From Escherichia coli (GTDB lineage: Bacteria > Pseudomonadota > Gammaproteobacteria > Enterobacterales > Enterobacteriaceae): a DNA stretch of 64,000 nucleotides. The translations under genes and the position numbers were made by a program. The DNA lies in the NCBI RefSeq assembly GCF_003790525.1, contig NZ_CP033635.1. One strand, 5' to 3'. The notes under the pieces were generated by a model, which saw only the letters and a program-made list of their open reading frames with translations, was not told the DNA's origin and made no database searches. Position 1 is the first letter of the stretch. Each line of letters begins with the position of its first letter. Positions 10,412 to 49,738 of the stretch are shown in pieces.

Positions 10412-10423
10412 CGCCGATGGGCG
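10412..10423. repeat. Left copy of the 12-bp target-site duplication (cgccgatgggcg) flanking IS4
   Basis: Identical 12-mer directly abuts both IS4 termini (10412-10423 and 11850-11861). Confidence 0.75.
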
Positions 10424-11849
10424 TAATGCCAGTCAGTTAAGCAACTGACTGGCTCTTTTTCGGGGCTGTGGGGTATTTCCAGGGCCTCTCCTTTACCACT
10501 CTCGGGAAGGCCCTTTCCCTTCTTGTCGGTAATTTCACAAGTTGTCCCATACTTGCAAGATCGCGCATCAGCTCCGGTATACGTCCCGGTGAAGCGCCCT
10601 GCAATGTCATCAGCATTCTCATCACCATTCCACATGATTCTGAGAAACTCAGTTGATTCGGCCAGTAACCTTTCAGATGTTCCGCCATTTTAATCATCTG
10701 ATATCTCACCAGATTATAAGCCAGTAAGACACCCCACAGCTCTTGCTCCACAAGCTCCGGTTTTTTACTTCTCAGCGTCAGCCTGCTCAGTTGCATCGTC
10801 TGTTTTATCTCCCTGTATCCCAGTTCGATTTCCCAGCGATGACTGTACAGATCCGCCATTTCTCCTCCGGGGAAGCGCATGGCGTCCGTCATCGACGTCA
10901 GCAGATGGCAGACTTTTCCTTTGCGCGTCACGGTCAGCAGGCGGGCTGTCACTTCATTTCCCAGTCCCGGCCACTTTTTTCGTGCCTGCGGGCTGGTTTT
11001 CAGCTTCACCAGATGATCGCCTTTACCCAGTTTTCTGATCTCTTCATATTGCGCTCCCTTTCTGAGAGGTATCATCCAGTGGCGGTGTTCTCCCGCCAGG
11101 CTCCAGGCATTTAACAGTCCCAGTGAGTAATAACCTTTATCCATTAACGTCAGAGTGTTATCGCCGGTTTGTTCTATAAGTTGCTCAGCAAGCTCATTTT
11201 CGCTGTTCTTCATCGTGCCGAAGGCTGCAGCCGTCAGCAGATGGCTGGTCAGTTCCATCTGGCAGACCATTTTGACCTGCGGGTAGAGCGCCGGGTTCCC
11301 GGCATGTGTCTGGCGGGGGAAGGCTGCATCGTTCTCTGGTGTATCCGGTGTGCGCCAGAACACACCATCGATGGCCAGCAGGGTCAGGCCGCACCAGTGC
11401 GGATGCGGCGTGGCGTTATGCCAGAGCTGCGCTGTTTTCGTGAACACGCGGCGGACAGCCTCACTTCCCAGGCGCTGGCGGGCCTGAATAACGGCACTGG
11501 GGGCAACGAAGGGGCGATTGCCCGGCAGCATGATGTCCAGGCGATTCACAATCTGGTGAAGAGGTTCTTTACGCTCAAGCGCCATGCCAACAATACACCA
11601 GACCATCATTTCGAGGGGAAGACGGCGCTTGCGTAGCGTTACAGTACCTGATTCGGCAAGGCAACGAGAGATGAGTTCGGGGTCGAGGTAATCCCCCAGA
11701 GAAGTCAGTGGGTTACGCAGAGAATCGTAACGGGATACCAGATCAAGAGCCTGTCCAATGTGCATAAAAAAATCCGGAAACAAGTGAGCGTTTCCGGATT
11801 CTTACACAGCCACTGGATCGGTCAACTGATCCTTAACTGATCGGCATTA
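10424..11849 (-). mobile_element. Insertion sequence IS4, 1426 bp, complete
   Basis: Terminal inverted repeats TAATGCCAGTCAGTTAAG (left) and TAATGCCGATCAGTTAAG (right, reverse complement), 16 of 18 matching; encodes the full-length transposase; flanked by a 12-bp direct repeat. Confidence 0.92.
10437..11765 (-). CDS. insG: IS4 transposase (DDE family)
   Basis: 442 aa from [26 protein letters not shown]..., the IS4 InsG sequence as I recall it; no frameshift or stop. Confidence 0.92.
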
Positions 11850-11861
11850 CGCCGATGGGCG
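11850..11861. repeat. Right copy of the 12-bp target-site duplication flanking IS4
   Basis: cgccgatgggcg, identical to 10412-10423. Confidence 0.75.
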
Positions 11862-16002: not shown

Positions 16003-16764
16003 TTACCGCCACATGGCGTGTTTATCGCGATAGCAATCGACCCACATCGCCGTCGCGCCACAAACGGCAACGGGCATAATGAACAGATTAAGCAGCGGGA
16101 TCATCGTAAACAGGCTGGTTAAAGCACCAAACTGCATATTGGTGATTTTGCGTGTGCGCAGGGCGGTGCGCATCTCTTTAAACGGCACTTTGTGGTTATC
16201 GAAGGGGTAATCGCAATACTGGATGGCTAACATCCAGGCGCTAAACAGGAACCATAGTACCGGCGCGACGGTTTGCCCAATACCAGGGATGAAGTAAAGA
16301 ATTAGCAATACAATTGCGCGCGGCAGATACCAGGCAAATTTTTGCCATTCGCGTTTCATGATTCGCGGCACATCTTTCATGATACCGAAAATCCCGGTAT
16401 CTGGCGGTGTAGCGCCAGTCAATCTTGCTTCCAGTTGTTCAGCCAATAAACCGTTGAACGGAGCGGCAATCCAGTTAGCAATCGTTGAGAAGAAATAGCC
16501 AAACACTAACAGCACGGAGATGACTGCCAGAGGCCACAACAGATAGCTCAGCCATTGTAACCAGTCCGGAACATAACTCATGAGCGTCGGGATCCAGACA
16601 TCGAGCTGCGTAAATAGCCACCAGAATGCGCCCCCCATCAACAAAATATTGACCAGCAGCGGTAAAATAACGAAACGCCGAATCCCAGGTTGCGAGACGA
16701 GCTTCCAGCCTTGCGCAAAATAGTAAAAACCGCTGCGTGGGGCAGATGTGAATGATGAAACCAT
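16003..16764 (-). CDS. cysZ: Sulfate transporter CysZ
   Basis: 253-aa membrane protein matching CysZ. Confidence 0.95.
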
Positions 16765-16993
16765 AATCAGGATGAGCTCCTTTTGACCAATCCCAGGAAA
16801 ATTCTGCGTATTTTACCGGGTAATTGCGCAATGGACAGTTAGGATATGTTCGAAAAAACAGCAAAAAGCACGATTTCATCTATCTTTGTGCTGTGAAAGT
16901 TAATAGTGCACTTGCACTTGAGGTAATCGGCAAATACTCTTAGTGAGTAAATGTTTGCCGTGGTGGCAAGGTGTTAGAACAACAGAGAATATA

Positions 16994-17992
16994 ATGATGC
17001 AGGATTTGCGTCTGATATTAATCATTGTTGGCGCGATCGCCATAATCGCTTTACTGGTACATGGTTTCTGGACCAGCCGTAAAGAACGATCTTCTATGTT
17101 CCGCGATCGGCCATTAAAACGAATGAAGTCAAAACGTGACGACGATTCTTATGACGAGGATGTCGAAGATGATGAGGGCGTTGGTGAGGTTCGAGTTCAC
17201 CGCGTGAATCATGCCCCGGCTAACGCCCAGGAGCATGAGGCTGCTCGTCCGTCGCCGCAACACCAGTACCAACCGCCTTATGCGTCTGCGCAGCCGCGTC
17301 AACCGGTCCAGCAGCCGCCTGAAGCTCAGGTACCGCCGCAACATGCTCCGCGTCCAGCGCAGCCGGTGCAGCAACCCGTGCAGCAGCCTGCCTATCAGCC
17401 GCAGCCTGAACAGCCGTTGCAGCAGCCAGTTTCGCCACAGGTCGCATCAGCGCCGCAGCCAGTGCATTCAGCACCGCAACCGGCACAACAGGCTTTCCAG
17501 CCTGCAGAGCCTGTAGCGGCACCACAGCCTGAGCCTGTAGCGGAACCGGCTCCAGTTATGGATAAACCGAAGCGCAAAGAAGCGGTGATTATCATGAACG
17601 TCGCGGCGCATCACGGTAGCGAGTTAAACGGTGAACTGCTTCTTAACAGCATTCAACAAGCGGGCTTCATTTTTGGCGATATGAATATTTACCATCGTCA
17701 TCTTAGCCCGGATGGCAGCGGCCCGGCGTTATTTAGCCTGGCGAATATGGTGAAACCGGGAACCTTTGATCCTGAAATGAAGGATTTCACTACTCCGGGT
17801 GTCACTATCTTTATGCAGGTACCGTCTTACGGTGACGAGCTGCAGAACTTCAAGCTGATGCTGCAATCTGCGCAGCATATTGCCGATGAAGTGGGCGGTG
17901 TAGTGCTTGACGATCAGCGCCGTATGATGACTCCGCAGAAATTGCGCGAGTACCAGGACATCATCCGCGAAGTCAAAGACGCCAACGCCTGA
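16994..17992 (+). CDS. zipA: Cell division protein ZipA (FtsZ membrane anchor)
   Basis: Starts [26 protein letters not shown] (N-terminal TM), long P/Q-rich linker, conserved C-terminal FtsZ-binding domain; 332 aa here. Confidence 0.92.
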
Positions 17993-18053
17993 TACACTTA
18001 AGGCAAATTAACTCCTTTTCGAACCCCCGCTTGTCGGGGGTTTTTAGCATTGA

Positions 18054-20078
<2,025 letters not shown>

Positions 20079-28939: not shown

Positions 28940-29356
28940 CCTGACCAGGTGTTTGCTGTTGTTCAATGTATTGGCGGATGACGGATATTGGCGCACCTCC
29001 GCAGCTACTGGCAAAATAGCCAGGACTCCACAAAACGCCTTTGTAGTAATACCTGACTGCAATATCTGGTCGATCTCGTCGCAGTCACCTACCCGATACG
29101 CCTTTGAGGCTGTTTACCAGACTGGATATCGCCAGTTTGGGAGGATAGTTAATTAACAAATGGACGTGATCTGGTTCGCCATCCATTTCAACCAGTTCAG
29201 CTTCAAAATCAGCACATACATTTGAAAAGTAAGTGCGTAGTTTTTCTGTCGCGTCATGGTCAAAAATCTGGCGTCGGTATTTGGGACAAAGACCAGGTGA
29301 ACATGCATCAGGAAAACACAATGCCTTCCACGCCGGATATCGGTTTCTTTTTTCAC
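28940..29356 (-). pseudogene. tnpA: IS200/IS605-family HUH (Y1) transposase TnpA, inactivated by a frameshift and an in-frame TGA; extent approximate
   Basis: N-terminus ...RHCVFLMHVHLVFVP is in one frame and ...PKYRRQIF...EMDGEPDHVHLLINYPPKLAISSLVNSLKGVSGR in another (1-bp shift at about 29285); TGA at 29082-29084, after which the same frame continues LWSPGYFASSCGGAPISVIRQYIEQQQ (catalytic Tyr region). Confidence 0.7.
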
Positions 29357-29378
29357 AGACCAAAATATAATTTGACCT

Positions 29379-30589
29379 GTGAAACGACTACAGGCATTTA
29401 AATTCCAGTTAAGACCCGGTGGTCAACAGGAGCATGAAATGAGGCGCTTCGCAGGCGCATGTCGTTTCGTTTTCAATCGTGCTCTGGCGCTTCAGAATGA
29501 GAATCATGAGGCCGGTAATAAATACATCCCTTACGGGAAAATGGCTTCCTGGCTGGTTGAGTGGAAAAACGCCACTGGAACGCAATGGCTTAAAGATTCT
29601 CCCTCACAGCCATTGCAACAGTCACTGAAAGACCTTGAGCGGGCTTACAAAAACTTCTTCCAGAAGCGGGCTGCTTTTCCCCGATTCAAAAAGCGGGGAC
29701 AGAATGATGCATTCCGCTACCCGCAGGGCGTTAAGCTCGATCAGGAAAACAGCCGTATTTTTCTGCCGAAACTGGGCTGGATGCGCTACCGGAACAGCCG
29801 TCAGGTCACGGGTGTTGTGAAAAATGTCACGGTCAGCCAGTCCTGCGGTAAGTGGTACATCAGTATTCAGACAGAAAGTGAAGTATCAACTCCGGTTCAC
29901 CCTTCAGCATCAATGGTCGGGCTGGATGCCGGCATGGCTGAACTTGCCACGCTGTCAGATGGGGCACAGTCTTTGAGCCTGTAAACAGTTTTCAGAAAAA
30001 CCAGAAGACGCTGGCGAGACTTCAGCGACAGTTAAGCCGCAAGGTCAAATTCAGCAATAACTGGAAGAAGCAGAAACGCAAAATACAGCGACTGCATTCC
30101 CGTATCGCAAATATCCGCAGGGACTACCTTCACAAAGTCACAACGACCGTCAGCAAAAACCACGCAATGATAGTCATTGAGGATTTGAAGGTCAGCAACA
30201 TGTCAAAGTCAGCAGCGGGTACGGTCAGCCAGCCGGGGCGCAATGTCCGGGCAAAATCAGGTTTAAACCGTTCGATACTGAATCAGGGCTGGTATGAAAT
30301 GCGCCGCCAGCTTGAGTACAAGCAGCTCTGGCGTGGCGGTCAGGTGCTTGCTGTTCCGCCAGCGTACACAAGCCAGCGTTGCGCGTGCTGTGGTCATACA
30401 GCGAAAGAAAATCGCCTGTCACAAAGTAAATTCAGATTCCAGGTATGTGGATATACAGCGAACGCCGATGTAAACGGCGCTCGTAACATTTTAGCGGCGG
30501 GGCACGCCGTTCTTGCCTGTGGAGAGATGGTGCAGTCAGGCCGCCCGTTGAAGCAGGAACCCACCGAAATGATTCAGGCGACAGCCTGA
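29379..30589 (+). pseudogene. tnpB: IS200/IS605-family TnpB (RuvC-like, OrfB_IS605 plus zinc ribbon), split by a single frameshift near 29970
   Basis: ORF 29379..29984 ends ...GLDAGMAELATLSDGAQSLSL; the next frame continues FEPVNSFQKNQKTLARLQRQLSRK... into ORF 30167..30589 (...IVIEDLKVSNM...CACCGH...C..C...NGARNIL); joined length about 403 aa. Confidence 0.8.
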
Positions 30590-47292: not shown

Positions 47293-48026
47293 TTAAAGAT
47301 GCATTAACTGGCGGAATTCTTTAACTTTGCTGCGGCTGACCGGCACTTCAAAATCCAGATCTTTCAGCCGCAGAATGTAGGTGTTATTAAACCACGGTTC
47401 GATCTCGCGGATTTTGTTCAGATTGACACAAAATGAGCGATGGCAGCGGAAAAATGCGACGGCGGCAGCTTGCTGCAAAACTCGGTAATGTTCATCGGCA
47501 TTACGTAGGATTCACGCCGCGTATAGACAAAGGTCATTTTCTCATGCGCTTCGGCGTAATAGATATCGTTAATTGGCGTGACGATGATTCGCTCATCTTT
47601 CACCAGATTAATGGTGTCATTCTCACGCGTTACCGTCGTGGCAGGCGTACTGCTGGTCTGCTGTTGTTGCCAGGCTGCTTCCAGTTTTTGTAGCATCCCG
47701 GTAATGCGTGACTCCTGATACGGTTTGAGAATGTAGTCAAACGCCTCCAGTTCAAACGCTTCTACCGCATGTTCTTTCCATGCGGTGATAAACACAATAA
47801 ACGGTTTATGGGCGAACTGGCTGATGTTTTGCGCCAGCAACACGCCATCCAGCGACGGAATATTGATATCCAGAAAAATGGCGTCGACGCGGTTATGCTG
47901 CAAAAACTTCAACACGTCCAGACCGTCGTCAAAGGTGCCGACAATCTCCATCTGGCTGTGCTCTTTAATTAGCCAGCTCAGTTCCTGTTGTGCCAGGAAT
48001 TCGTCTTCAACAATGATGACTTTCAC
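47293..48026 (-). pseudogene. ypdB: LytTR-family response regulator YpdB, interrupted by a 1-bp frameshift in a homopolymer run
   Basis: REC domain plus most of LytTR in ORF 47418..48044 (ends ...KLPPSHFSAAIAHFVSI); the LytTR C-terminus FFRCHRSFCVNLNKIREIEPW... is in the overlapping ORF 47293..47478; frames meet at the T5 run 47450-47454 (minus strand); start may be the GTG at 48026 or the ATG at 48044. Confidence 0.8.
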
Positions 48027-48040
48027 AATATCACTCCGGC

Positions 48041-49738
48041 TCAAAGCAATAACGTAGCCTGTGAGGCGACTGGGGTGCGTTGGTTAGGAATGTAAAACGC
48101 AATTTCCGTTCCTGGTTCCAGGCGGCGGATATGCAGCCCCTCGCCATACAATAACTTCACGCGATGATGGACATTCAGCAGACCAATTTTATTGCCCGGC
48201 ATTTCGTTCGCTTCGACCCGCTCAATGACTTTTGGATCGATGCCGTGCCCGGTGTCTCGCACCGCAATGCGTACCCGATTACCGCACTCTGCAACGCTGA
48301 TGGTGACAACGCCTTTACCTTTGCAAGGCTGAATACCGTGGACAATGGCATTCTCCACCAACGGCTGGATCAGCAGGCTGGGAATGCAGCAATTCACCTC
48401 TTCATCAATATCATAGATAACCGTCAGCTTGTCGCCAAAGCGGGCCTGCTCAATGGCAATATAGTCTTTAATTTGATACAGCTCTTTTTTGATATCGATT
48501 TGCTCATCGTCTTTTAATTCAATGTTATAGCGCAGATAACGCGACAGATTAAAGATCAGCTGGCGAGCGGTATCCGGATTCAGACGGATTGACGATGAAA
48601 TAGCGTTCAGAGCGTTAAACAGAAAATGGGGATTAATTTTGCTTTGCAGCGCGCGAAGCTCTGCCTTATTTGCCATTTCACGTAACTGCTCGGCACGCGA
48701 AACCTCCAGTTGCGTGGAGATGATTTGCGACAGACCGACCGCCATTTCCTGTAATGATGACGTAATCTGATGCGCGTGGCAGTAGTAAATTTTCAGTGTT
48801 CCGGTCACAACGCCTTTCTCCCACAATGGGATCACCAGCATGGAATGAATCTCTGGTGTGCGGTGGGCTTCATCATTGTTTTTAATGATGATTTTTCCGT
48901 AATTCATCGCCTGTCGGGTAGTCGGGCTAATGAAGTCATCGCCATTCTGATAGTTGTGTTCACCCACGCCGACATAGGCCAGCACATGATCAGTATTAGT
49001 AATCGCCACCGCATCGGCGTGAATGTCATCGCGGATAATTTCGCAGACCTTGCGTAATGACTCGCTATTGACATGGCGAAACAGCGGCAGCGTTTTGTTG
49101 GCAATATCCAGCGCCAGCTTGGCCTGCCGCGCGGCGCTGGCCTCTTTTTCGCCCTCAACGCTTTGCACCAGCAGCACAATAAAGCCGATACAGACGCTAC
49201 CGAGGATCATTGGAATCCCGATTTTAGAGACGATATCGATCCCCAACGCGGTAGTTGGTGCCCAGACAATCACCAGAATCATGGTCAACGTTTCACATAA
49301 CATGCCGCCGAGAATACCGACGCGCCAGCGCTGTGCTTTAGGGATTTTCAGGTTGATCCAGCCCGATATACAACCCGCCAGAATGCTGGTGATAAAGCAG
49401 GGGATCGCCGTCACGCCGCCGATATCAATTAAATAACGGTGAATACCTGCGATCACGCCGGTAATAATGCCTACCCACGGGCCAAACAGAATTCCGCCTG
49501 ACATCACCGCGATAATACGTACGTTCACCAGCGAGCCTTCTACGGGAACGCCGGACCAGGTGCTGAACAGGGCGAACAGCGAGAAAATGGCGGTAACGGC
49601 GAGCAGCTCTTTCGGTGAGTGTGCCGACTTGTGCAACAGTTCGCGAAACAGGCGGATACGGATGAGAAAGAACAGGCAGATAAGCATTAACGCTGCCCGA
49701 TCGAAGACCGCCAGCAGCATGTTGAATATTTCGTGCAC
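48041..49738 (-). CDS. ypdA: Sensor histidine kinase of the YpdA/YpdB two-component system (5TM-LytS/GAF/HisKA)
   Basis: 565 aa with membrane N-terminus and C-terminal HATPase motifs. Confidence 0.92.

Follow-up and report, generated by a model that had tools for sequence, protein, structure and literature searches.

What makes ZipA differ in length between strains of one species, and does the difference matter to the protein? The question is raised by the zipA gene in the stretch of E. coli DNA analysed here, 64,000 nt long and referred to below as the window. The ORF that holds the gene opens with a GTG at 16943 and closes with the TGA at 17990-17992. Counted from the ATG-ATG (MMQDL) at 16994, which is the ZipA start, the product has 332 aa. 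The first-pass annotation had set this length against the 328 aa of K-12 ZipA, and the alignments bear it out: zipA of K-12 MG1655 (b2412, NP_416907.1) has 987 bp and encodes 328 aa, against 999 bp in the window. The gene, its neighbours and the domains of its product lie as follows.

16003-16764, minus strand: cysZ, neighbour of zipA
16994-17992, plus strand: zipA coding sequence, 999 bp, 332 codons plus stop (ORF list and sequence)
17012-17077, plus strand: N-terminal transmembrane anchor, codons 7-28 (K-12 limits, PMC6904479)
17078-17248, plus strand: charged domain, codons 29-85 (K-12 limits, PMC6904479), identical to K-12
17249-17560, plus strand: P/Q-rich linker, codons 86-189 (K-12 limits 86-185, PMC6904479)
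17585-17956, plus strand: FtsZ-binding domain (ZipA_C), codons 198-321 (Pfam), protein identical to K-12
18063-20078, plus strand: ligA, neighbour of zipA

The gene order cysZ-zipA-ligA is that of K-12. K-12 ZipA is divided into an anchor (residues 7-28), a charged domain (29-85), a P/Q domain (86-185) and an FtsZ-binding domain (186-328) (PMC6904479). Using these limits, the anchor and the charged domain of the window protein lie within residues 1-119, which are 100% identical to K-12 ZipA. A low-complexity P/Q-rich linker separates the charged domain from the FtsZ-binding domain, as expected of ZipA; it has 104 residues in the window, 55% of them P or Q, versus 100 in K-12. The Pfam model PF04354 (ZipA_C) matches residues 198-321 with an E-value of 3.2e-46 and 156.8 bits (cutoff 23). 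Overall, the two proteins are 99% identical, sharing residues 1-119, the entire FtsZ-binding domain and the same neighbouring genes. In RefSeq, NZ_CP029747.1 has a zipA annotation for the identical gene of 999 bp. Because the zipA DNA of E. coli 2016C-3878 is identical to that of the window, and its RefSeq product is WP_001317975.1 (332 aa), the window protein matches this entry; WP_001317975.1 is annotated in 2016C-3878 and SCU-109, and no zipA difference from the window was seen. Judged from its sequence, the window protein has each testable defining feature of ZipA, and its binding to the FtsZ C-terminal peptide and its role in division would follow from the K-12-identical binding domain.

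The surroundings of the gene are core-genome DNA, running from murP/cysPUWAM via ptsHI-crr, zipA-ligA, xapABR, gltX, mntH and glk to evgS. Over positions 1-25000, zipA included, E. coli SMS-3-5 and eleven other strains match the window at 100%. Wherever compared, the window equals the SMS-3-5 chromosome (NC_010498.1, approximately 2639216 down to 2575217, reverse strand) bar one base. This missing base is the only difference from SMS-3-5 over window positions 23217-63999: a run of six A in SMS-3-5 is reduced to five at 47450-47454, in ypdB on the minus strand, and the response-regulator gene is frameshifted at about codon 190 of 244, giving ORFs at 47418-48044 and 47293-47478. Of 5,420 complete E. 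coli records that matched, not one has the five-A form (best match 99.3%, with one gap); this form may reflect a mutation private to the strain, faulty sequencing or editing in the source. Two mobile elements are also present. An IS4 of 1,426 bp lies at 10424-11849 between pdxK and crr. It ends in inverted repeats of 18 bp, and the 12 bp of target sequence duplicated on either side of it, CGCCGATGGGCG, are found at 10412-10423 and 11850-11861. The transposase ORF, to which Pfam assigns Nterm_IS4 and DDE_Tnp_1, runs on the minus strand (10437-11783). This copy is missing in 2016C-3878 and is present, annotated as IS4, in SMS-3-5 and related strains. A decayed IS200/IS605 element occupies approximately 28947-30589, between gltX and yfeD; in SMS-3-5 the remnant is annotated as a frameshifted tnpB (InsQ/TnpB) and a partial tnpA pseudogene, and it also occurs in 2016C-3878.

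Protein and DNA alignments place the whole length difference between the window and K-12 in one 12-bp (4-aa) indel in the P/Q linker. The first-pass annotation had located it within 17290-17420 and quoted a 17-residue peptide, which corresponds to residues 121-137 (17354-17404) and thus lies inside that interval. The linkers of the two strains are not identical, K-12 being without one QPVQ/PVQQ unit. The sequence elements involved are listed here, together with the two codons at which the proteins differ by substitution.

17351-17353, plus strand: codon 120, CGT (Arg) in the window, CAT (His) in K-12 (alignments)
17363-17374, plus strand: repeat unit 1, CCG GTG CAG CAA, encoding P124 V125 Q126 Q127 (sequence, K-12 alignment, outgroup codons)
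17375-17386, plus strand: repeat unit 2, CCC GTG CAG CAG, encoding P128 V129 Q130 Q131 (sequence, K-12 alignment, outgroup codons)
17366-17373 and 17378-17385, plus strand: exact 8-bp direct repeats GTGCAGCA at 12-bp spacing (sequence, K-12 alignment)
17447-17449, plus strand: codon 152, TCA (Ser) in the window, CCA (Pro) in K-12 (alignments)

The window reads GCG CAG CCG GTG CAG CAA CCC GTG CAG CAG CCT, where K-12 reads GCG CAG CCG GTG CAG CAG CCT. Units 1 and 2 of the window share 10 of 12 bases and encode PVQQ-PVQQ; the sole K-12 unit, CCG GTG CAG CAG, is a chimera of the two, with the CCG of unit 1 and the CAG of unit 2. Removal of any 12-bp frame within 17366-17385 yields the K-12 sequence. 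As there are just two imperfect 12-bp copies and no array, Tandem Repeats Finder reported no repeat when run on 16900-18100. Apart from having one PVQQ unit fewer, K-12 ZipA carries H120 and P152 where the window has R120 and S152; neither R120H nor S152P had appeared in the first-pass annotation. Codon 120 is polymorphic in both length classes and among the outgroups. The two zipA genes differ at 11 synonymous sites as well.

To measure how frequent the two forms are, 200 bp of the window with the indel at their centre were compared with 5,426 complete genomes of E. coli, and the corresponding 188-bp K-12 segment served as the reciprocal query. The window query matched 2,378 records at 95% identity or above (long form) and 3,048 at 90-95% with a 12-bp gap (short form), with 66 records covering less than 80% of the query. 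The K-12 query gave 3,088 records at 95% or above (short) and 2,313 at 90-95% (long). The 332-aa form is thus carried by approximately 43%, and the 328-aa form by approximately 56-57%, of roughly 5,400 complete genomes. Long alleles are found in O157:H7 strains, ZH193, SMS-3-5 and ST131-like strains; short alleles are found in K-12 derivatives, BL21 and HS. We take K-12, BL21 and HS to be phylogroup A, O157:H7 to be E, SMS-3-5 to be F and ST131 to be B2. The short alleles are uniform, with 2,963 records at least 99% identical to K-12 over the 188 bp, and the long ones vary more (621 records at 99% or above and 1,757 at 95-99%, window query). The four-residue length difference is therefore ordinary, widespread and already known from annotated genomes.

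Which of the two forms is older was judged from outgroups and from the haplotypes on which the alleles sit. Outgroup sequences came from species-representative genomes scanned with a degenerate DNA pattern (54 loci from Escherichia, Salmonella, Citrobacter and related genera); none of its records is titled E. fergusonii or E. marmotae, and the outgroup sampling is partial. The sole record titled E. coli (L017, SCPM-O-B-8794) differs from E. coli zipA at 63-67 positions and was therefore counted as a divergent Escherichia. The repeat region reads QPVQQP-QPVP, i.e. two units, in E. albertii (L007), comprises two QPVQQP-type units in L017 and three QPVQQP units in Escherichia sp. E1V33 (L046), and reads QPVQQP-QPVQ in several Citrobacter. 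L017 and E1V33 agree with the window in closing their first unit with CAG CAA and their last with CAG CAG. E. albertii likewise has CAA at the end of its first unit, but its second has diverged (CCT CAG). Within E. coli, the comparison was based on four short and six long alleles read base by base, plus the identity bands. The four sampled short alleles share T234 and T468, versus C234 and A468 in all long ones; C234 is also the outgroup state, and A468 is that of E. albertii, the one outgroup that aligns there. The short alleles show 0-6 differences among themselves and lie nearer to the long O157:H7 allele (6 differences) than the window allele does to K-12 (13 differences). The unit order in the outgroups, the derived SNPs and tightness of the short alleles, and the GTGCAGCA copies bracketing the missing 12 bp together suggest that the two-unit form is probably the ancestral state in E. 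coli. The short allele would have a single origin, and, judged by the strain names and the phylogeny of E. coli, its deletion may have occurred on the branch that gave rise to phylogroups A, B1 and C.

The converse history is that the lineage of the window gained the unit, through a 12-bp tandem duplication in a non-K-12 ancestor followed by CCG to CCC and CAG to CAA changes, the K-12 unit being ancestral. It would agree with Escherichia sp. MOD1-EC7003 (approximately 2.5% divergent), the nearest of the outgroups found and the only one with a single unit, and no SNP in the sample cleanly separates the position of the root. However, the unit of MOD1-EC7003 has CAA where K-12 has CAG, which points to an independent deletion whose break points were different. 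A duplication would also need three events where a deletion needs one, making it less parsimonious, and it fits poorly with the CAA-then-CAG order common to more distant Escherichia and with short alleles that bear two derived SNPs and are much less diverse than the long ones. We consider such a gain unlikely. The first-pass annotation had described the window linker as containing an extra QPVQ unit, which is true relative to K-12; the outgroups and haplotypes indicate instead that K-12 has undergone a deletion. In short, the longer ZipA is real, ordinary and already present in databases, and on the sequence evidence the direction appears reversed, with K-12 short rather than the window strain long.

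Taken together, the best explanation is ordinary allelic length variation in a disordered P/Q tether, in which the two-unit form is the older one and the K-12 group has lost 12 bp; we hold this to be very probably correct. Because GTGCAGCA repeats flank the missing 12 bp, slippage is the suggested mechanism: the two GTGCAGCA copies would have slipped against each other during replication, or recombined out of register, with a loss of 12 bp that left the chimeric unit behind. The linker itself serves as a flexible tether between the transmembrane anchor and the FtsZ-binding domain of ZipA, the protein that anchors the FtsZ ring to the membrane in gammaproteobacteria. The P/Q domain has been described as a flexible tether, although the same study argues that it may be more compact than a free one (PMC6904479). 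A second FtsZ-binding face has been placed on the globular domain, not the linker (PMC8669495). By calculation, four residues correspond to approximately 1.5 nm, or about 4% of the contour length, and would shift the expected end-to-end distance from about 7.1 to 7.2 nm, or about 2%, with an assumed persistence length. With changes of this size, no functional effect is expected, and the length polymorphism is probably functionally silent and neutral.

Length change in this region is also seen on a larger scale. The remaining 1% or so of the genomes include larger in-frame linker deletions, of which three zipA genes are listed.

GF43 (L069:925-1869): 314 aa, 18 residues fewer than the 332-aa allele
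LCP30S3_I5 (L003:1208-2125): 305 aa, 27 residues fewer than the 332-aa allele
EM10-18-28 (L004:1501-2388): 295 aa, 37 residues fewer than the 332-aa allele

All end points of these three deletions fall at QPVQQP-like motifs. Since approximately 66 of 5,427 records did not align across the linker, more such variants may exist. Outside E. coli, ZipA has 320-331 aa in E1V33, L017 and E. albertii through further linker indels, with no indels in the N-terminal or FtsZ-binding domains, and in eight ZipA sequences from Escherichia every indel lies within residues 100-166 of the window protein. That repeat-length variation in the tether is plausible, as the first-pass annotation had proposed, is thus supported by two major alleles and by rare forms of 314, 305 and 295 aa, all of them confined to the linker.

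Could the tether length instead be under selection, with lineages tuning the spacing between the membrane and the Z ring so that four residues are adaptive? Each allele is fixed in large, old lineages, and linker length differs stepwise across Escherichia, both in keeping with such tuning. However, the change is small on either measure given above, i.e. contour or expected end-to-end distance, the distribution of the alleles resembles inheritance by descent, and wild strains carry linkers that are 18, 27 or 37 residues shorter, which argues that the tether tolerates length change. We therefore regard selection on the four residues as very unlikely. A related proposal, that the Escherichia tether was shortened in steps, from three QPVQQP to two, to PVQQ-PVQQ and to one PVQQ in the K-12 clade, by lineage-specific selection and not by slippage and drift, is likewise given little credence. 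Finally, an error of sequencing or assembly is virtually dismissed, as is a hypermutable contingency repeat flipping between one and two units. A short direct repeat is indeed the type of sequence prone to slippage and base-calling errors, yet more than 2,300 complete genomes, independent of one another, have the same 999-bp allele, the sampled alleles of either length come with SNPs of their own, and Tandem Repeats Finder reported no array for the two imperfect copies. As a candidate in its own right, a hypervariable contingency locus does not describe this site, which has two copies identical at 10 of 12 bases and haplotype-tied length classes that dominate thousands of genomes.

Allelic variation in the tether, with a 12-bp loss in the K-12 group as its probable origin, has a parallel in the disordered linkers of other division proteins. 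Low-complexity flexible spacers that connect a folded domain to a binding or anchoring element, the FtsZ C-terminal linker among them, vary in length and sequence across species while the domains at their flanks are conserved. The FtsZ C-terminal linker belongs to a different protein and sits at another position in the chain that attaches the Z ring; in contrast to it, ZipA is shown to vary among strains of a single species, and the variation could be traced to short direct repeats.

The length difference itself carries little biological weight. It does mean that the K-12 reference would not represent the ancestral ZipA: the laboratory strain appears to carry a deletion, and approximately 43% of sequenced E. 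coli have the longer protein. In practical terms, ZipA residue numbering beyond position 122 differs by four between strains. The P/Q domains found in nature, with 67, 77, 86, 100 and 104 residues, also offer a graded choice of existing variants for experiments on tether length and the attachment of the Z ring.
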